From NCBI GenBank assembly GCA_000092065.1, contig CP000590.1: 64,000 nucleotides of DNA. One strand, written 5' to 3'. Made by a program: the position numbers and the translations under genes. Below are positions 3,687-63,900 of the stretch, piece after piece. Numbering within the stretch: position 1 is the first letter of the stretch; each line of letters begins with the position of its first letter. This stretch comes from Ostreococcus lucimarinus (taxonomy: Eukaryota). The notes beneath the pieces are model-generated. The model did not search any database. It was given only the letters and a program-made list of their open reading frames with translations, and had not been told where the DNA came from.

Positions 3687-4349
3687 TCACGACGTCTGCG
3701 TCGCGCCTATCGCGAACAAATCCTCGCGCAACGACCTCGACATCGCCTCAAACTCCTCGTCCGAAACGCACGCGCGCAGCGCGGACGCGTCGTCGACGAC
3801 CCACGCGTCGGTGTCGACCCACGACTTGCACCCCCCGTACCGCTCGTCGTCGGGATCGATCGTCAGCCCCTCCCGCGCCTCGTAGCATCGAACCTCCAAA
3901 ATCACCAACGGCGCGTCCGGTTTCCAATTCGCCCGCCGCGCGAACAAATCTTCCGGCCAGCCCGATCGCGCGCTGAGGACCCTCAGCGCCTTCGGCGCGT
4001 CCTCCGCGCGCACCTCAAACGTTCCCGTCGCCGCCGCGAGCGCGTCCAGCGCCTTCGGCGCGCTCGCCGTCCCCGCCGCGCGCGCGTACGCCGATAGATC
4101 CGCGTGAAACGCCGTCGGAAACAACCAGAACGCGTCCGCGCGCAGCTCGAACCCGCGCGCGTCGCGGAGGCCTCCCTTGCGCGCGAGCGCGATTTGTTCG
4201 CCGCGTCGCAGCGCGTCGACGACGAACGCCCACTCCTTCAGCGCGACGTCCACGCGCTCGACCGCGCGCCGCGGCGCCGGACCGCGGTCGACGCGACGCG
4301 ACGCGCGCGACGCGCGAGGCGGGACGCGCGCGCCCAGCGCGCGGCACAT
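3687..4349 (-). CDS. Conserved hypothetical protein, DUF1802-like (bacterial-type)
   Basis: The N-terminal block ALKEWAFVVDALRRGEQIALARKGG resembles bacterial DUF1802 proteins. This is from memory and unverified. Confidence 0.4.
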   Translation of the reverse strand: MCRALGARVPPRASRASRRVDRGPAPRRAVERVDVALKEWAFVVDALRRGEQIALARKGGLRDARGFELRADAFWLFPTAFHADLSAYARAAGTASAPKALDALAAATGTFEVRAEDAPKALRVLSARSGWPEDLFARRANWKPDAPLVILEVRCYEAREGLTIDPDDERYGGCKSWVDTDAWVVDDASALRACVSDEEFEAMSRSLREDLFAIGATQTS

Positions 4350-4360
4350 CGCGACGCGAA

Positions 4361-5779
4361 GTGATGCCGAACGACGCCCTGTTCGATTGGCTGCGACGCA
4401 CCGCGGGCGCGGACGTCGCCGACGCGAGCGATCTGTACGACGGAAAGGTACTGCTCGACGCGCTCGCGCGCGCGACGGGCGCGGAGGAGGCGCGCGCGGC
4501 GCGCGCGGACGAGGATTCGATTCAAATCTTGGGGCGACAGCTGCGCCGCGCGGGCGTGTTCGATGGCTCGGACGCGCTGCGCGCGCGCGACGCGCGAGGA
4601 ACGATGCGGGTGGTGCGAGAAATATATGCGGAGAGTCTGCGGCGACGAGTGGCGGCGTTCGCGGTGGACGCGGCGAGGGACGAGGGGGCGAGATTCGGGG
4701 ACGCGACGCCGTCGCCGTCGAGACGACGCGACGAAGACGAAGACGAAGACGAAGACGAAGACAAAGAGGAGGAAGGACGAGATTTGCTCGGCGCGTTTGA
4801 GATCGAAGGTGATGACGTTGACGCGGGTGCGTTCGACGAGGACGTGGATGAGTTGGATTTAACGGAGGATTGGCGGGCGTTGGAATCGCCCGCGGCGAAA
4901 TCGACGAAGGCGCGAGTCGACGCCGGGTTCGTCAAGGCTTCGGATATGTTGCAGGAGTTGAGTTTAAACGCGCTCGATGAAGATGTGTGTGATGATTTCG
5001 GTAGCGATGCGTACTGTCGCGGCACGCGCGCGGCGTCGCGGGAGACGAAGACGCTGACGAGAACGCCGCCGCCGGTGCCGAAAGCGCTTCGCTTGATTCC
5101 GTCCCCGTCCGCGAAACCGGTGAAGTGGGACGTCGTGTTCGACGAACCGAAACCATCGGGGCGCGTGCCGACCTGGTTTCCCGGTCGCAATGCGCGGCTG
5201 ATGGCGTCGACGTCGTCGAGTGAGACGTCGCCGCCGTCGAAGCCCATCGCGGTGTCGTGGTTCGGCGAACGCGACGACGACGGCGACGACGCGGCGAGTC
5301 TGCAACGCGCGGCGCAAAGACGCGGACGTTTGGCGTCGTCGCTGTCGCCCGTCGCGCGTCGCGGGGCTTCGTCTCCCGAACGCCGTAGAAGCGATATCGG
5401 CGTCGCCGCGTGCTACGTTCCCGCGCGCGCGCCTTCGAACAAGCGCCTCATTCGCAACGCGCTTCGCGTGCTCGTCGGGCCGCCCGATCGCGATGATTAC
5501 GTCGCCGCCGTGCGTGCGATTGACAAATGCGAGTTCCCATCGGTGGTTTTGTTGCTGAAAGGATCGGCCGAAGTCGCGCCGCGAAAGTTGCGAGGCGTGT
5601 ACGCCGTCGTCGACGAGGATACGCTGAAACGCATCCACGGCTCTGGACCAGAATACGTCGCCGGCTCGTCCGTTTTGGCGTCGCTCAAATTCGACACAGC
5701 GACGATGAGCTTCGCACCGCTTGCGAGTCGCGCGATCACGCCCACCGTCGCGGCGATTAGCTTGACGCGCGCTAAATAG
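4361..5779 (+). CDS. CAMSAP: CAMSAP/Patronin-like microtubule minus-end binding protein (N-terminal CH domain, C-terminal CKK domain)
   Basis: The N-terminus is CH-like (LFDWLRR...DLYDGKVLLDAL). The C-terminus is CKK-like (CEFPSVVLLLKGS...RGVYAVVDEDTLKRIHGSGPEYVAGS...LKFDTATMSFAPL). The middle is an acidic low-complexity linker. Confidence 0.6.
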   Translation: MMPNDALFDWLRRTAGADVADASDLYDGKVLLDALARATGAEEARAARADEDSIQILGRQLRRAGVFDGSDALRARDARGTMRVVREIYAESLRRRVAAFAVDAARDEGARFGDATPSPSRRRDEDEDEDEDEDKEEEGRDLLGAFEIEGDDVDAGAFDEDVDELDLTEDWRALESPAAKSTKARVDAGFVKASDMLQELSLNALDEDVCDDFGSDAYCRGTRAASRETKTLTRTPPPVPKALRLIPSPSAKPVKWDVVFDEPKPSGRVPTWFPGRNARLMASTSSSETSPPSKPIAVSWFGERDDDGDDAASLQRAAQRRGRLASSLSPVARRGASSPERRRSDIGVAACYVPARAPSNKRLIRNALRVLVGPPDRDDYVAAVRAIDKCEFPSVVLLLKGSAEVAPRKLRGVYAVVDEDTLKRIHGSGPEYVAGSSVLASLKFDTATMSFAPLASRAITPTVAAISLTRAK

Positions 5780-12111: not shown

Positions 12112-13743
12112 TTAGTTGCCGACGAATAAGTACTCGTACGCGATGAGATGCAAGAGCACGAGGTAGGAACCGATGATAAATCGCCTGTGACGCAGAACGC
12201 TCTCGAGCCTGCGGTTGAGCGGACGCTTGTACGCGAGCGGCGTCAAAGTTTCGGCGCCGACGACGGCGTTGGCGACGGTCGGGGTGGCGACACCGGTGAC
12301 GGCACCGCGTTTTTCCATCGTCGAACGCCACGCGAGGTCGGTGAATCGTCGAGTGAGAGAATCGATCTCTTCGTTCTTCTTCAGCACGAGCGCTTCGCTC
12401 TCGGCGAGTCGGCGAGAGAGCGAAGCCAAGGACGCGTTCGCGGGCGACGACGCGGAGCTATCGCGGGCGCGTTCGGCCGCCAAGGCGGCGAGTTCACGGC
12501 GCGTCTCTTCGAGAGCGCTCTCGGCTTCTTTCGCGCGCTGTTCCGCGGCTAGGACATCCGCAGCCGTGCTGGTTTCGCTCGAAGCGCCGCCATCCGCGCG
12601 CAAGTTGTTCATCTGCGTCTCGTACGCCTCCCTCGCCGCAGACGCCTGCGCCATGGCGGCTTGCGCGCGTTCTTTCCACACGCTCTCTGACGCGCGCGCT
12701 GCGAGCGCACTTTCGGTGGCATCGCTCGATTTCAGCCGATCGATTTCGTCTTGCGCCTCGCGAAGCGCGTGTCTCGCTTGCGCGAGCTCCGTCTCGATTC
12801 TCTTGACGTCGGCGCGATCGACGGTTGACTCACCCTGCGCGCTCTGCGTCACGGCTGCAATTTTACCTTCGTACTCTTCCTGTTTCGCTGCGAACGCTTC
12901 CGTGAGATGCGCCAAGCGTCCGTTCGCTGCGCGGTTCTCTTCGCTCAACTTTTCCAGCTCGGCTTCGAGCGTCGTCACTCGCGCCTCCGCCTCCGCTCGC
13001 GCGTGTACGCTCGCTACGTGCTCACTCTCCGCTTGCGCCCGAGCACTCGCCGCGAGCTCTCTCTCTTCAACAGCTGCCCTCTTCGCCGCCTCCGCCGCGA
13101 GTTTCTCCGCATTCGCCGCCGCCGTCGCGTTCGCCGTCTCGCTTCGCAAATCGTTCAACGCGAGCGTCAATTTTTCATTCTCCTCCACCGCCTTGGCGAT
13201 GCGCAACCGCATCCGAGCCGCCTTCGACGTCTTTCTCGACTTCCCCCCGCGCCCGATGGACCCACCGCTGTCCTCTCGATCGCTTCCATCGCTCCCGTCG
13301 TCGCTCTCGTCGTCGCTCTCGTCGCTCGACGCCTCCGCCGCGTCCAACTTCTCCCTCAGCGCCTCGTTCTCCGCCTTAAAACTCTCCAACTCCGCCCGCA
13401 ACACCGCGACTTTCGTCTCCAGCGCCTTCTCGTTCCCTCCCGTCGCCTCCGCGTCCTCGCGCGCGTTCGCACCGCTCGCTCGACGCGCGTCCTCCAACAA
13501 TTTCGCCAACGCCTCGCGCTCCTTCTCGATCGTTTTCCCCTTCTTCACCGCCCCCCTGAGCTTCTCCCGCAGCTCCGCCACGCGCGCGCGCTCTTCCTCG
13601 AGCGTCGCGTTCGCTCGCGCGCGCTCGTCGTCGCTCGCGCGCGACGCCATCGCGGCTCGAAGTGCCGCGTCGGCGCCTTCGCGTCCACACTTCGCGACGA
13701 TGCGTCGCCTCCCGATCGTCGACGACGCCACGCGCGCGCGCAC
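12112..13743 (-). CDS. Tail-anchored long coiled-coil protein, golgin-84-like
   Basis: About 500 aa of coiled coil, then a single C-terminal transmembrane segment (IIGSYLVLLHLIAYEYLFVG). The start codon is uncertain. Confidence 0.45.
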   Translation of the reverse strand: MRARVASSTIGRRRIVAKCGREGADAALRAAMASRASDDERARANATLEEERARVAELREKLRGAVKKGKTIEKEREALAKLLEDARRASGANAREDAEATGGNEKALETKVAVLRAELESFKAENEALREKLDAAEASSDESDDESDDGSDGSDREDSGGSIGRGGKSRKTSKAARMRLRIAKAVEENEKLTLALNDLRSETANATAAANAEKLAAEAAKRAAVEERELAASARAQAESEHVASVHARAEAEARVTTLEAELEKLSEENRAANGRLAHLTEAFAAKQEEYEGKIAAVTQSAQGESTVDRADVKRIETELAQARHALREAQDEIDRLKSSDATESALAARASESVWKERAQAAMAQASAAREAYETQMNNLRADGGASSETSTAADVLAAEQRAKEAESALEETRRELAALAAERARDSSASSPANASLASLSRRLAESEALVLKKNEEIDSLTRRFTDLAWRSTMEKRGAVTGVATPTVANAVVGAETLTPLAYKRPLNRRLESVLRHRRFIIGSYLVLLHLIAYEYLFVGN

Positions 13744-14443
13744 GCGGTGCGCGATGTGCTGGGGGACGCTTCACCGCGCGTGTCTGCCGTCGACGTGCGC
13801 GCACGCGACGTGCGAGGCGTGCTTCAAGGCGAGAGAACCCGACGCGAGCTGCGCCGTGTGCGGAGAGAAATATCTCGCGCGCGGCGCGCCGGGTGCGTTC
13901 GCGCGCGACGCGGCGCGCGACGCGGAGTGCGAGCGGGTGTACGGCGACGCGCGCGAGGCGTACGACGCGGAGGAGGATCGGCGGGCGCTGCGGACGCTGA
14001 AGGAATGTTTTGGGTACGAGACGTCGACGGCGTTCGCGGCGCGCGACGGCGACGGCGACGAAGACGAAGACGAAGACAAAGACGCGGCGACGCGAACGGA
14101 GACGGTGGACGAGGACGATGGGGCGTACGAGATAGAGTTTAGGGACGTCGCGGCGGCGCGGCAGACGTCGGGTGAGCCGGATGAGACGCGGGCTCGGTTA
14201 CCCGTGGAGTTCGCGTCGGCGCCGAAGACGGCGAAGGTGGAGGCGCTGCGGAGGTTCGTCGAAGAGCAGGGCAGAGGGAAGTACGCGCTTTGCGACGAAC
14301 ACGGTCGTTATCGGTGGTCGCGCGCGCACGGGTCGGACAAAGATTCCGTTTTAGATCCAACGAAGACGTTGGAAGATTTTTTTGAGCCGCAGCTCCGTCG
14401 CGGAGAGCCCATAGTGGCGTGGTTCGTTTCGTTTCGTGAGTGA
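13699..14443 (+). CDS. RING/zinc-finger protein (hypothetical)
   Basis: A Cys/His cluster CAMCWGTLHRACLPSTCAHATCEACF...CAVCGEKY, an acidic (DE)n stretch and a conserved-looking C-terminal domain. Confidence 0.45.
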
Positions 14444-14660: not shown

Positions 14661-15737
14661 GTGATGGCAACGATGCAGACATCACGGCGGTTCTTTCTCT
14701 TTTTGCTCATGTGCTGCGTCACGCGCGCGCGCGCCGATTTGACAACTGAGAGCACGTTTGAGCGCGTCGAGAGAGACGGAACTGAAGGGACTTTCGAACT
14801 GGTGGGAAAGTACACCATTAGAAACGACGGCGCGAATGACGTGAACCTCGCCGGGCAAGCCCTGATGTTGCGATTCCCAGGATATGTTCGCGTGAAGAAC
14901 GACGATGATCCAGCACAGTCGACGTTGACGAGAGCGCTCCCGCGCGACTGGATCTTCGAGTGTTTCTGGTCTTACGTCGAAGGGCGATACAACGGGACGA
15001 ACGTGTGTCCCTCGATCGATTTCGTCGTTTCGTCGAATGTGGTGGAGGTACGATTCGTGAACACCTTGATTTTATGTCCAGGATGCACGCTGAGGGGGGA
15101 CTCGTCGTACACGTCCTTCGTTCTTAAGCATCGTGCGTATTTCCCCATCTTTGAAAATGGCGACATGCTCAAATCGATGGGCATGCGAACGTTTTTCGAC
15201 GCACCGCCACCGCCGCCGCCTCGAGGCAGGCGGGTGTGTTTCCCTCGCGAAGTTGATTTTTCATTTAAAGTGTCAAGCTACCCGAGCCGTTTCGCGGCGG
15301 ATGACGAGTCGGCGTCCTCAGACGACGCCGTCGTGCCGTTGGGCACGGCGGGCTTCGACGCGTTCTTACGCGTCTTCTTAGACGTGCGCAATCGACAATC
15401 TTTCGATTACGACATGTCTTCAGTCGTCATCGTCGTCCCCTTTGATTGGAAAATCTCTCCGAGCGAGAGCTCGGGCAAAATTCAGCAAACGCCGGATGAT
15501 TTCTTCGCGCGATGCCACGGGCAAGGCACGACGCTGTGCGACGTCGCTTACGTACTCAAGGAATCGTCGGGATTCCAAATTCGATTCAATCCAGGATTCA
15601 CCCTCTGCCCTGGATGCTCGCTGCGAGGCAAAGGTCCACAAGGCGCCGCATTCGAACTGTACTCGCCATTTCTTTTTCCGCTCGACATAGAAAGCGTTCG
15701 AGGCGCGTCGGCGTTTTGCGACGACGCCCAACTGTAA
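14661..15737 (+). CDS. Secreted protein with two internally duplicated Cys-motif domains (novel, no family recognised)
   Basis: A signal peptide (FFLFLLMCCVTRARADL) is followed by two homologous modules ending in RF(V/N)xxx(I/T)LCPGC(T/S)LRG. The gene sits in a GC-poorer island. Confidence 0.55.
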   Translation: MMATMQTSRRFFLFLLMCCVTRARADLTTESTFERVERDGTEGTFELVGKYTIRNDGANDVNLAGQALMLRFPGYVRVKNDDDPAQSTLTRALPRDWIFECFWSYVEGRYNGTNVCPSIDFVVSSNVVEVRFVNTLILCPGCTLRGDSSYTSFVLKHRAYFPIFENGDMLKSMGMRTFFDAPPPPPPRGRRVCFPREVDFSFKVSSYPSRFAADDESASSDDAVVPLGTAGFDAFLRVFLDVRNRQSFDYDMSSVVIVVPFDWKISPSESSGKIQQTPDDFFARCHGQGTTLCDVAYVLKESSGFQIRFNPGFTLCPGCSLRGKGPQGAAFELYSPFLFPLDIESVRGASAFCDDAQL

Positions 15738-15781: not shown

Positions 15782-16621
15782 ATGATCGACGTCGACGACC
15801 CCGTCGTGCGCAAACACGTCGAAGAGAAAGCGCGCCTGCGCGAGCGCGCCGCCCGCGCGTCGTCGCGCGCGTCGTCCTCGCGCAGCGCCGGCGGCGCTTC
15901 GGGACAGCGCGAGGTTCAACGCTGGATAAAACTCGACTTGGGGCGCCCCGTCCCGGCGACGCACGACCCGTGGGCCGAGGGCGACGCGTTCGAACTGACG
16001 TTTTCGTGCGAATCGGGCGGCGCGACGTCGGTCAGCGTGGGCGCGCTGAAAGCGGCGAACGGTGGTTGCTGGAGCGCGTTCGGGACGAGTTGGCACTGCG
16101 TCACCGGGTGGAGTCGACTGGGCTTGGATTTTCGAGGCGTGGCGCTGGAAGTCGCGTTGGAGTGCGCGTTCGGCGAACGCGACGTCGGTGGTTGGCGGTG
16201 TTTGTACCAGACGAGTGCGGATGGGTACACGGTTGGCGTGGACGCGCGCGACTGCGAAGGCGCGTTTCTCGCCGTTACGGACGCCGACGGCGCGATGCTT
16301 TCGCGCGACCACGGTGGACCCAGGCTCGTGTTTCCCGCGTTGTACGGCTGGAAGAGCGCGAAGTATTTATCTCGAATCGAGCTCAAGACGTCGTACGAGA
16401 ATGGGTTTTGGGAAAACTTGGGGTGTCACGCTCGCGGTCGATGGCGCTACGATGAGCGATGGAAGCCGGGGACGTCCGCGCGAGTGTGGAACGTATTGGC
16501 GTGGATCACGGATCGATACTACATCGGTGGTGAACGGGTGTGGATATGGGTCATGGTGTACGGCGGGCGGGCGTTGGGGATGGTCGCGTCTCTGTTCGCC
16601 AAGAAGAATAGGGTAGACTAA
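15782..16621 (+). CDS. Sulfite-oxidase-family molybdopterin-binding oxidoreductase domain protein (MsrP/YedY-like, single domain)
   Basis: The Moco-domain signature is GGPRLVFPALYGWKSAKYLSRIEL (compare PLRLVVPxxYGxKSxKWxxRIE), with upstream CxxGWS and GV blocks. The protein is about 280 aa with no cytochrome b5 or dimerisation domains. Confidence 0.65.
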   Translation: MIDVDDPVVRKHVEEKARLRERAARASSRASSSRSAGGASGQREVQRWIKLDLGRPVPATHDPWAEGDAFELTFSCESGGATSVSVGALKAANGGCWSAFGTSWHCVTGWSRLGLDFRGVALEVALECAFGERDVGGWRCLYQTSADGYTVGVDARDCEGAFLAVTDADGAMLSRDHGGPRLVFPALYGWKSAKYLSRIELKTSYENGFWENLGCHARGRWRYDERWKPGTSARVWNVLAWITDRYYIGGERVWIWVMVYGGRALGMVASLFAKKNRVD

Positions 16622-16663: not shown

Positions 16664-17620
16664 TCACAGTTCGGTGTGAGCGTCGAGCGACGCGATCTCG
16701 TCGACGATGGCGAGGAACAACGAAGAACTGTCCTGCACGTCCTGCCCGAGTTCCCATATCATCACCCCGCCGAATCCCATTCGTCGAGCCACGCGGACTT
16801 TTTTTCGAACGACGCCGACGGAGTCGAACGCCCAATCTCCGACTACATTTTGATCTTTGTCGAGATTCTCTGAACTCGCAAACTCGCGACGAATCTCCTC
16901 GTACGTTTTCGCTTCGCCCGTTCGCATTGAGCGAGCGTAAAACGGTATCCCGACCGTGAATTTACTGACGTCGTCGAACTCGCGCTTGACGTACTCCATC
17001 AAACTCTCCACGAAACTCATCGCGGCGTGTCCGCGCGGATCGCGCGAGTCGTACGCCATGATGTGCACGTAGTCCACGTATTTCATCAAATCAAACTTCA
17101 CCATCGCCTCGAACGTCGCCACCGTCGGATGAATCGCGAAACTCAAGCGCTTGCGCTCGCCTTCCATCTCGTCGAGCGCGTCGCGCGTCGCGCGCAGCAG
17201 CTCCCCGAACGCCATCCAATCGCTCTCGCGCGCCGGGTACTCCCAATCGTACGACACTCCATCGAACGCGTGCGTCTCCACCGCGCGCTTCACCGCCGCC
17301 ACGAGGGCGGTGGGAGACTCCGCCGCCGCTCCGAATCCGTCGCTTCGGCCGCCGCCGCCGACCACCAAATCGCTCGCGCAGTCACCGTCCTCGTCCGTCT
17401 TCTTCCACACCCCATCCAGGCCGTCCAGCGCGCGACCAGACGACGACGGCGCGGCGGAGAACGCCAGCACGCGCGCACCGCGCGCGCACGCTCGCGCGGC
17501 GGCGGTCGCGGGTCGGTAATCTGGAAGGTACCCGTGCACAGAAAACGTCTTCGCGGCGACCGCGCCGTGCGAACGGGACGCGAGAGCCGCGAGCGCGAGG
17601 ACGAACGCGCGCAGACGCAT
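16664..17620 (-). CDS. Glycoside hydrolase family 18 (chitinase-like) protein, secreted or ER
   Basis: The GH18 catalytic motif is FDGVSYDWEYP (DxxDxDxE). An N-terminal signal peptide MRLRAFVLALAALASRSHG is present and the C-terminus ends in HTEL. Confidence 0.85.
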   Translation of the reverse strand: MRLRAFVLALAALASRSHGAVAAKTFSVHGYLPDYRPATAAARACARGARVLAFSAAPSSSGRALDGLDGVWKKTDEDGDCASDLVVGGGGRSDGFGAAAESPTALVAAVKRAVETHAFDGVSYDWEYPARESDWMAFGELLRATRDALDEMEGERKRLSFAIHPTVATFEAMVKFDLMKYVDYVHIMAYDSRDPRGHAAMSFVESLMEYVKREFDDVSKFTVGIPFYARSMRTGEAKTYEEIRREFASSENLDKDQNVVGDWAFDSVGVVRKKVRVARRMGFGGVMIWELGQDVQDSSSLFLAIVDEIASLDAHTEL

Positions 17621-60920: not shown

Positions 60921-63900
60921 TTAATGCGTCAAGCGCTGAAGCTCTTCGACGCGACGAATGATTTCGGCGCGATCGCACTTCATGTCAGCGGCGACGACGT
61001 CGGCTTGCTCGACTTTTAAGTCGAGAAACGATTCGACGAGGTCGCCGTCGACGAAATTCCTCGAAGGATCGCTCTTGCGGCGAAGCGTGTGGCGGAATGA
61101 ACGCCACTCCGCGTGTTTCAAGCCACCGACGCCTTGGATGTGCTTGTTCATGGAGGTTTGAAGGCGCTCGGCGAAATCGTAGGCGTCCTTCGGCAGACTG
61201 GCCAAGACGCCGATGACGCCGTTACCAGTGCCGAAGAGCAAAGTGGGGACTTCTAAACTGTCGCCATCTTTGAGGCTCATGACGAGTGAACCAGGAGAGA
61301 ACACGTTGACGAACTCACCTAGGTGATACTCGCCCGTGATTTCCAAACGACTACGCTCTTCGTCCGTCATAGCGTTCATGTTGCGAGCGACGGTAAACAG
61401 GTTCAAGCTGTTCTCGGCGCCGAGATAGGTTTCGTCATCGTCTAACATCGCCACCGCAGTCATCCAATTTGCGTTAAAGTCTCTCGCGATCTCGTCGATC
61501 GCGCCTTCTTCGGGCTTGTACTGTAACAGCGACATGGACTTAAGCAAATCGCCGACGAGAATCCAATCGCCTCTCGTCTTGACGGAGAACGTGATGATTT
61601 GGCCGTGGTGCGAGCACTCGCTCACCAGCTCGTGCGCGTCGTCTTCGCGCGGTGTCCATTTGAATAGCTCTAGCTTAGAATTGATCCCCGCGAGAAGTTT
61701 ACCCTTGAATGCGTTCAAGTTGTACACGGCGCCTCGAACTTCTTTCTCGGATACGAGTTCAAGGGCGTCCGCCTCAACGCGTAAGACGAGAATGCGCCCG
61801 CGCGACGGTTCATCTTCTTGCTCGTAAGCAAACCCCGTACCGACGACGTAGTACTCTCTCGAATCGCCCGCGAACGAGCACGACATCAAGGAACTCGCCA
61901 ATTCGTGCTCTTCTAATCGAAACTGGTGGAGCGTGTCAAACGAACCGTCGTCGATGAGTCTGATGAAGAGTTCTTGATCACCCTTCGACATCAAATGCTC
62001 GACCGCGACCGCGAATGTGTTCGTGTCGACCTGATGCGCGATCCTACGCGGGTGACCACCGAGTGGGATCGTGCGAATGTGCAGCTTTTGAATGTCGTCA
62101 ATCCCGCCGATGGTTAAATCTTCGTCGCCCGCCAACGCGAGAGCGTCCGGGAACGCTTCGCTGCTGAACGGACAGACATGCAACACCTCTTGCACGTTGA
62201 CGTTGGAGTAGATTAGCTTTTTGTTGTTGCTGAAGATCACCGTCGGCCTATCCGACGCCGCGAACACACTACTCACATTCGTCGCATGGCTCTTAAACGT
62301 TTGCAACGTAATCGGCTTGGTACCGAGGCTCAATTTTTTGCGCCCGCTCAAAGCCCCAGTGTTCTGATCTAAAACGTACGTGATCAACTGACCGTCACCT
62401 AAGCCTACGAACAAGTATGGAATGTCTTCGAACGAACACAGCAACGTCGATCGAGGGATGATGTCTTCATCTGTACTTTCTTTCGTGATGACGCTCAAGT
62501 CACTCATTGACGCGAGCACGATATCCATGGACCACAAACCAACCGCGCACACCGGCGAGCTCATCCCATCGCCCATGGGCGTGCAATCTAAGCAAGCTAT
62601 TTCGTTCTCGAATGTCTTACTCGCCAAGAGGACGATTTTGCCCTTCGCCACGTTCAAGCAGTGTAACTGCCCGCCCGCCGCTGCAACAAGAATTTGAGTC
62701 GGGTTGCACTTCGCCGAAAGAATCTCCGCACCGTCCTTTGGCTTCCATTCATCGAGTAAGTCGCCACCTCTTGAGACGAGGCGGACGCCCCTGTGCGTCA
62801 CTTGAAGGAAAACATTGCCTTGCATGTTGCCACAGCACAAAGTTTGCGCTTCAGCGTCGAAACCCGCAATTTCTGTCTCGTCCAACGTGTCCCCTTCGTC
62901 CCCGACAAAGCCCAAGATGCGAGTTTCGTTTATGAATGTGACGACCAAGTACTTATCCATTTGGCTATCGTCGCTATCGCGAAGTGAAAACAAGCCTTTG
63001 ACACCGGGAAGCTGAATCACCGCTTGCTCGTCAATGCCTATGCCGTTGCGCACTACGCGTAAACTCCCATCTTTTAACGCCCCGCTACACGTAACCACTT
63101 GCCCTTGACCGTGCCGCTCTAAGTCAACGAATGCAAAGTCTACAATGGGACCGAGATTGGTGAACTCTTCTAAAATTTGCACGTACGTCGGGTTGCCGTC
63201 TTTATCGATGCTCGTCTTCTCCGCGTGCAGCTTGATGAGTTGCGAGTCGCCGTACGTGCTACCGACGAATACCACGCCGTTATCGAGATAGCTAAGCGTA
63301 CTCGCGATTGACGTGTCGCCAAGTCTCTCAATTTTAAGCTCTCGAACGCGCTTGCCGTCGTGTAAGATGACGAGCAAGTAGAGCATGCCGTCCGCGTCGC
63401 CCAGCAGGTAGCGCGAGCCGTCCGGATCAATAGCGCCGTAGCACGTGATGTTCGTCCGATCGGGGATGTTGGGGATGTTGATCGCTTTGAGAAACACATC
63501 TGCGTCGTCTTCGAACTTGTTCAAGTACACGATAATTTCCTGCCCCAAGACGACGACACCGCCGATGGGCGCGGGGACCGGAATTATTTTATTCGAGCCA
63601 CCCTCTAAATCGTTCTGCGCCCAAGGCGACGACACGAATTCCTTCTCGCGAATGCCGATCTCGTACGTCTTAATGTGTACCGCATCTTTAGTGTCTCGGT
63701 AAAGCACCGCGATCGTCGGCTTGGGCGTGCCGTGCAAGAACTTGATGTCCTCCACGCGCAACTCCTCGAGGCGAATGTTAAACGCCTCCTTCACCCCGCC
63801 CTTTTCGTCGCACGGAATCACCTTGAATAATCCGTCGTACAGCCGCAACCCGATCGCTCGACACGTGTCATCCACGATCCCAATCTGTCCATCATCCGCC

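Follow-up and report, generated by a model that had tools for sequence, protein, structure and literature searches.

What does an unannotated single-exon gene of Ostreococcus lucimarinus encode, and where did it come from? The gene lies on contig CP000590.1, in a stretch of 64,000 nucleotides that is here called the window. In the open reading frame (ORF) listing it occupies the plus strand up to position 15737 and starts either at a GTG at 14661 (358 amino acids, aa) or at an ATG at 14664 (357 aa); the GTG is only the mechanical start of the ORF and is not taken as the start of the gene. A previous sequence-only reading had proposed a secreted protein with two copies of a novel domain, located in an island poor in guanine plus cytosine (GC). 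The secreted protein and the duplicated domain, which Pfam misses, stand; the novelty does not, as the domain displays a divergent fold of the CBM3 type with a weak sequence match. According to predicted structures, each module is a highly divergent, cysteine-stapled, green-algal CBM3-like beta-sandwich, unannotated so far, for which the fold matches and the sequence matches weakly. The protein, presumably soluble and found in Ostreococcus-type Mamiellales, would thus consist of two tandem, anciently duplicated CBM3-like modules joined by a short polyproline hinge, and it is probably a bivalent binder of glycans or glycoconjugates.

The N-terminus possesses a hydrophobic leader, FFLFLLMCCVTRARA, and the segment MATMQTSRRFFLFLLMCCVTRARA, followed by DL, displays the succession of positive, hydrophobic and small residues of a signal peptide. 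The best 15-residue hydrophobic window of the first 35 residues falls in this leader (Kyte-Doolittle value 1.65), while the hydrophobicity scan revealed no transmembrane-like segment outside the leader (maximum of 1.48 in 19-residue windows elsewhere). The same combination is present in every full-length orthologue. To judge from hydrophobicity alone, the protein would enter the secretory pathway and subsequently be released or kept at the surface. Residues 26-181 and 187-357 are homologous to each other (BLASTP E 1e-7, 24% identity over 112 aa), and the alignments of module 1 and module 2 match in hhalign with 96.8% probability (E 2.9e-10, 106 columns). Each module carries one of the two conserved motifs VEVRFVNTLILCPGCTLRGD and FQIRFNPGFTLCPGCSLRGK, after which about 35 residues with two further strands follow. 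In the alignment of close full-length orthologues (12-14 sequences, called A1) 72 columns are invariant, and all ten cysteines of the mature protein belong to them: C100, C115, C138, C141, C192, C284, C292, C315, C318 and C352. Module 2 differs in its additional terminal pair C192/C352 and in an acidic loop (residues ~211-229) of low model confidence. The signal peptide, the two homologous modules of about 150 aa and the Cys-Pro-Gly-Cys in both of them had been recognised in the sequence-only reading; it had placed this motif at the very end of the modules, which extend beyond it, and had counted seven prolines in the spacer instead of six.

Pfam does not name the module. The full protein matches no family at E<=10, scans of 19 full-length relatives gave no family for the module either, and among 39 modules (aligned as A2) none scores above a gathering threshold at E<=10. 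Weak matches among the 39 comprise CBM_3 in one module (E 0.061) and the Lamin Tail Domain in two (E 0.003), all others being scattered, single and chance-like. The AlphaFold2 model calculated from A1 consists of two beta-rich modules (mean predicted local distance difference test score 76), with leader, spacer and acidic loop at low confidence. Foldseek searches against the PDB rank CBM3a/b first (E 5.5e-5, probability 1.0), from which a CBM3-like fold of both modules follows; each predicted module is a ~150-aa beta-sandwich superposable on solved CBM3 structures. One outcome that the sequence-only reading had named as refuting its claim was a confident assignment to an established family of secreted domains, and such a match exists in part.

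Sequence profiles converge independently on the same family. The full-length profile A1 has no match among PDB sequences at E<=10. The hidden Markov model (HMM) of A2, searched against 177,635 distinct PDB sequences at E<=10, returned 14 matches, 13 of them CBM3 (best E 0.0034). Aligned with hhalign to CBM3a of CipA (query sequence identical to 1NBC), A2 reaches 61% probability (E 8e-5, 83 columns), short of the 90% that is usually required; with a CBM3 alignment of 13 sequences, shallow because the CBM3a search gave just 12 sequences, the values are 45-57% (E 1-2e-4). The register is constant across all runs and comprises xVxNxGxxxxxLxxLxLRF, a conserved Cys, and xLEVxFxGGxL followed by either CPGC or EPGA. 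FKVTNTGSSAIDLSKLTLRYY stands opposite YTIRNDGANDVNLAGQALMLRF, TFWCDHA opposite IFECFWSY with the nearly invariant Cys55 of CBM3 on the invariant first Cys, and YLEISFTGGTLEPGAHV opposite VEVRFVNT-LILCPGCTL. With this constancy, CPGC corresponds to the beta7-beta8 turn of CBM3 (E-P-G-A) with a cysteine on both sides. Within the cellulose-binding strip of CBM3a, the position after the conserved Cys is the only alignable one: D56-H57 stand opposite F/W/Y-W/G in the majority of the algal modules (F101/W102 in the window protein). Two disulfides per module, probably made by its four core cysteines around the CPGC hairpin, would staple this hairpin to the strand with the CBM3-conserved Cys and to the loop after it; C192-C352 would tie the ends of module 2 together.

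The module is not restricted to the window protein. An exhaustive HMM search with A1 among 1.84 billion cluster representatives yielded 24 matches; besides fragments from the orthologue group these comprise longer proteins, with lengths of 185-2142 aa. Full-length distant relatives possess a hydrophobic leader and 2-4 copies of the module, with Pro-rich linkers resembling those of hydroxyproline-rich glycoproteins (HRGPs) in between. P0019 and P0020 additionally carry an N-terminal F5/8-type-C (discoidin) domain, and two very large relatives add a PAN domain and/or MgtE_N/FliG-like repeats. The latter two, P0022 (1666 aa) and P0034 (2142 aa), are metagenomic; each has several LCPxC CBM3-like modules next to 7-11 MgtE_N/FliG-like repeats, and one has PAN in addition. 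This odd combination may represent either a genuine giant surface protein or a fusion of gene models. P0036, another match of the profile search, is a false positive, namely a tandem-repeat protein without the cysteines.

The consensus of the 39 modules reads EL...(I/V)xNxG...(V)xLxG(V/L)x(L)x(F) ... (D/E)(F/W)xxxC(W/F/Y)... nxC ... Gxx(V/I)xFxGGxLCPGCxLxG ... (F)xxxHxxYxPL ... C. In A2 numbering, the first two cysteines (C75 and C90) are invariant and the CPGC cysteines (C113 and C116) are conserved in at least 90% of the modules. Some relatives display the motif free of Cys, as AIPPGGVLRAP in P0019_395_545 and VVLPPGHTIEP in P0019_180_322. Several multi-module proteins end in a module of the module-2 type, with an N-terminal Cys, ...FPLxI... 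near the C-terminus and a final Cys further on; the two module subtypes are therefore older than the Ostreococcus protein.

None of the relatives bears a functional name in the sources queried, most being unnamed and a few "hypothetical protein". The sole functional name, a YedYZ-type molybdopterin subunit, is attached to 290-aa members of cluster 8, which are sized like the neighbouring Oxidored_molyb gene. This cluster groups the YedYZ-named members with the CBM3-like orthologues, probably as a result of overlapping or fused gene calls such as the gene 3867-4826 of locus L003, which overlaps the end of the target. A word-indexed search with A2 found fragments of the same family only and no named protein, and literature searches on pherophorins or CBM3 in green algae, Ostreococcus included, turned up no work on this family.

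The protein would most likely act as a lectin or matrix cross-linker, by non-catalytic binding on the cell surface, extracellularly or within the endomembrane space. Each module would present one face for binding, where most algal modules have an aromatic residue next to the conserved Cys, and two modules per chain would allow a glycan or glycoprotein to be bound bivalently or cross-linked. The discoidin and PAN domains of the relatives are extracellular binding domains. Carbohydrate binding by the modules is presumed. Distinctly unlikely is a more far-reaching version, in which the LCPGC modules are a functional eukaryotic branch of CBM3 with a chitin- or cellulose-like polysaccharide, crystalline or fibrillar, as its ligand, or else a surface glycan produced by the supposedly naked Ostreococcus. 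If true, the tandem protein, always two genes from a secreted GH18, would belong to an unrecognised extracellular glycan layer, which could matter for aggregation, grazing or prasinovirus adsorption; should the modules bind polysaccharide, the wall-less Mamiellales would have an undescribed surface glycan biology. In any case, a conserved hypothetical family of ecologically dominant marine picoalgae gains a structural and evolutionary handle, useful for the annotation of picoalgal secretomes.

Several points weigh against a CBM3-like glycan binder. No single sequence test is significant for CBM3 membership, with hhalign at most at 61% and Pfam CBM_3 far under its gathering score. The C-terminal third of the module is not reliably alignable to CBM3, and the residues of the planar strip and the Ca2+ site of CBM3a are not mappable, R112/W118 and the Ca2+ ligands falling in this very third. 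The structure models were built on shallow alignments of 12-14 close orthologues, and secretion is deduced only from hydrophobicity. Ostreococcus is described as wall-less, so that an obvious polysaccharide ligand is missing. Some CBM3 modules are non-binding; together with the wall-less cell, this leaves room for a ligand that is a protein, or for a role that is structural only.

Rather unlikely is a pherophorin-like matrix glycoprotein, in which the globular domains and the (hydroxy)proline spacer self-assemble or cross-link by means of CPGC disulfides and carbohydrate recognition is secondary. The invariance of all ten mature cysteines and the long PPSPPPP-type linkers of the distant relatives, typical of algal HRGPs, are in line with it, as is the layout, which mirrors volvocine pherophorins with an N-domain of ~170 aa, a hydroxyproline-rich spacer and a C-domain of ~155 aa (PMC9818292). 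The spacer of the window protein, however, comprises just six prolines and varies among orthologues. Volvox PhG, whose exons were stitched from genomic sequence (PMC9818292, Supplemental Fig. S1), served as control: the Pfam model PF12499 scores its genuine domains at E 9e-25 and 6e-18, whereas none of the 39 modules and none of the 19 full-length relatives match. The alignment of A2 with the PhG C-domain in hhalign has a probability of 0.05% (E 0.81), and the CCP end motif of the stitched PhG is absent here. Membership in the pherophorins was rejected on these grounds, as both the full protein and the 39 modules remain without a PF12499 match at E<=10.

A module for protein-protein interactions without a carbohydrate ligand, either cargo- or adhesin-like or a peptide binder similar to mu-homology domains, is likewise unlikely. 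It draws on the two weak Lamin Tail Domain matches. Against it, CBM3 matches are consistently higher in both models, CBM3 alone is recovered by the sequence profile as well, and the discoidin and PAN domains that accompany the modules usually bind glycans or serve in adhesion.

CxxC is a classic redox or metal motif. CPGC and the two upstream cysteines might serve thiol-disulfide exchange or constitute a Cys4 metal site, as in a sensor or oxidoreductase, and the four cysteines of a module show no or hardly any variation across 39 diverse modules. We regard this function as very unlikely: the fold is a beta-sandwich and not thioredoxin-like, the route of the protein is the secretory pathway, an oxidising environment in which cysteine pairs usually have a structural role, residues other than Cys replace the motif in the two P0019 modules mentioned above, and the motif aligns with a plain beta-turn (EPGA) of CBM3.

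The descent of the gene can be followed in its orthologues. A word-indexed search of 5.8 billion clusters gave 14 matches, of which 12 are full-length (343-366 aa, 50-98% identity), including an "unnamed product" of Ostreococcus tauri with 60% identity; none of the 14 carries a Pfam domain. One metagenomic orthologue, P0010 (266 aa), is 85% identical through module 1 and then changes to an Arg-rich tail in another frame; it may be a pseudogene or carry a frameshift from assembly. The gene order of the window is Roc/Ras, an unannotated gene, BRCT, a 512-aa ORF, a small RING-like ORF, the target, Oxidored_molyb, GH18 and proteasome alpha. The same order is found on chromosome 10 of O. tauri (L001), where the orthologue occupies CAID01000010.2:514010-515059, and in four metagenomic loci whose orthologues show 50-56% identity. 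Viral contigs of IMG/VR, scanned with A1 family patterns, contain no relative. Because of the conserved gene order across loci and the lack of relatives in IMG/VR, the gene is vertically inherited within Ostreococcus-type picoalgae.

Base composition was compared among 42 non-overlapping ORFs of the window with at least 150 aa and a coding-like GC pattern over codon positions. The window as a whole has a GC content of 0.633. The gene, at 0.555, is second lowest of the 42 (0.642 ± 0.047 for the other 41, z -1.85), and at third codon positions (GC3) it is the lowest (0.656 vs 0.782 ± 0.052, z -2.42). The lowest GC content belongs to an 821-aa ORF near the end of the window (0.535, GC3 0.672), and the last 3 kb of the window are GC-poor too (0.53-0.55), a region that deviates more than the target gene. 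Many 1-kb windows of the stretch range between 0.53 and 0.60. The protein contains 22.7% FYMINK residues (window mean 17.1%) and 27.7% GARP residues (mean 35.5%). In O. tauri the orthologue dips just as mildly (0.580, neighbours 0.583-0.702). The slightly low GC content is partly due to amino-acid composition, in addition to a weak codon bias, and not to foreign origin. Given the z of -1.85, the lower ORF and many low windows, the amino-acid effect and the dip in O. tauri, the gene falls within normal variance, near its lower limit, and forms no island. The sequence-only reading was right that the gene (estimated there at 50-55% GC) is lower than its neighbours, which have 0.63-0.65 and not about 70%; its GC-poor island dissolves in the gene-to-gene variance, an outcome it had itself named beforehand as refuting, and its suggestion of a recent viral or horizontal acquisition is contradicted by synteny in five other loci, the O. 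tauri dip and the lack of an IMG/VR relative.

A recently acquired viral or bacterial gene in a GC-poor island is therefore extremely improbable and was rejected: the extreme GC and GC3 ranks and a fold best known from bacteria, with exclusively bacterial PDB matches, are outweighed by the modest z, by synteny kept in O. tauri and four further lineages at 50-60% protein identity, by the composition effects and the IMG/VR scan, and by the lack of any credible bacterial relative among the 1.84 billion representatives of the exhaustive profile search. A bacterial origin of the whole algal family, if any, would be ancient and not recent. A false lead is thereby removed, since the gene is no viral or horizontal acquisition; a CBM3-like module remains mildly surprising in a naked alga, while the claims of a novel fold and of foreign origin fail.

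Table 1. Features of the target gene and other ORFs in the window (residue numbers refer to the 357-aa protein).
Feature	Position	Strand	Remarks
Complete coding sequence, single exon; secreted tandem CBM3-like protein, 357 aa + stop	14664..15737	+	Collinear with 13 full-length orthologues
Putative signal peptide, residues 1-25, MATMQTSRRFFLFLLMCCVTRARA before D	14664..14738	+	N-terminal hydrophobic window; cleavage site inferred
Module 1, residues ~26-178, predicted CBM3-like beta-sandwich	14739..15197	+	C100, C115, C138, C141 invariant; LCPGCTLRG at 137-145
Six-proline spacer, residues 181-186	15204..15221	+	Pro-rich but variable among orthologues
Module 2, residues 190-357, predicted CBM3-like beta-sandwich	15231..15734	+	C284, C292, C315, C318 invariant; LCPGCSLRG at 314-322
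512-aa gene	12112..13650		
Spurious 742-aa ORF	12215..14443	+	Antisense to the 512-aa gene
~233-aa RING-like ORF	13742..14443	+	Inside the 742-aa mechanical ORF
Oxidored_molyb gene	15782..16621	+	Next gene downstream of target
GH18 family gene	16664..17620	-	
821-aa ORF of lowest GC	60921..63386	-	

Among the neighbouring genes (Table 1), the GH18 family protein (E 2e-31) possesses an N-terminal hydrophobic leader as well. Its catalytic-region motif is FDGVSYDWEYP, in which Ser replaces the middle Asp of DxxDxDxE. In each of the six loci, window included, it is the second gene downstream of the CBM3-like gene, and a functional link between the two in the handling of chitin or N-glycans is speculative; the whole region is collinear, so this neighbourhood carries little weight. 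The gene immediately downstream of the target codes for an Oxidored_molyb domain (YedY/sulfite-oxidase-like molybdopterin). Just upstream, the ~233-aa ORF has a sub-threshold match to zf-RING_5 (E 3e-4, 21 bits vs a cut-off of 27.9); at the equivalent position L003 and L004 contain a gene of 240 aa, and none is called in the O. tauri record. The 512-aa ORF is without Pfam match and appears coiled-coil-like in its Ala/Glu/Arg-rich sequence. Here, as in many loci, long spurious ORFs overlap real genes, the 742-aa ORF being an example. Such ORFs are typical of a high-GC genome, and ORF length alone is consequently no evidence of coding in this region.

Among known systems, CBM3 (CBM3a/b/c; PF00942; e.g. 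CBM3a of Clostridium thermocellum CipA, 1NBC, and the RsgI-type sensor 4B9C) is the closest family. Both share the size of ~150 aa (PMC7410926 for CBM3), an extracellular, modular and linker-joined context, the N-terminal hairpin xVxNxGxxxIxLxxLxLRY, the conserved Cys of strand 4 and the xLEIxFxGGxLxPG turn. The algal modules differ in being eukaryotic, in their four invariant cysteines including CPGC instead of E-P-G-A, in planar-strip and Ca2+ residues that are not demonstrably conserved, and in that they are never joined to a glycoside hydrolase in the relatives seen; they also remain under every family threshold, the best Pfam CBM_3 value (E 0.061) occurring in a single one of the 39.

CBM2 (Cex CBD of Cellulomonas fimi, 1EXG; chitin-binding domain of Streptomyces ChiC, 2RTT) shares the VxNxG hairpin motif. 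CBM2 modules have a disulfide between N- and C-terminus, which recalls C192/C352 of module 2. They comprise ~100 aa instead of ~150, and CBM2 was rejected as closest family with structural scores below those of CBM3 and an hhalign probability of 2.4% for A2 against the CBM2 of Cex. Pherophorins (PF12499) are likewise green-algal and secreted, with two globular domains of ~150-170 aa and a proline-rich spacer (PMC9818292), and relatives of the window protein have HRGP-like linkers. The similarity is one of architecture alone; no sequence relationship is detectable, and pherophorins end in CCP whereas the algal modules carry LCPGC.
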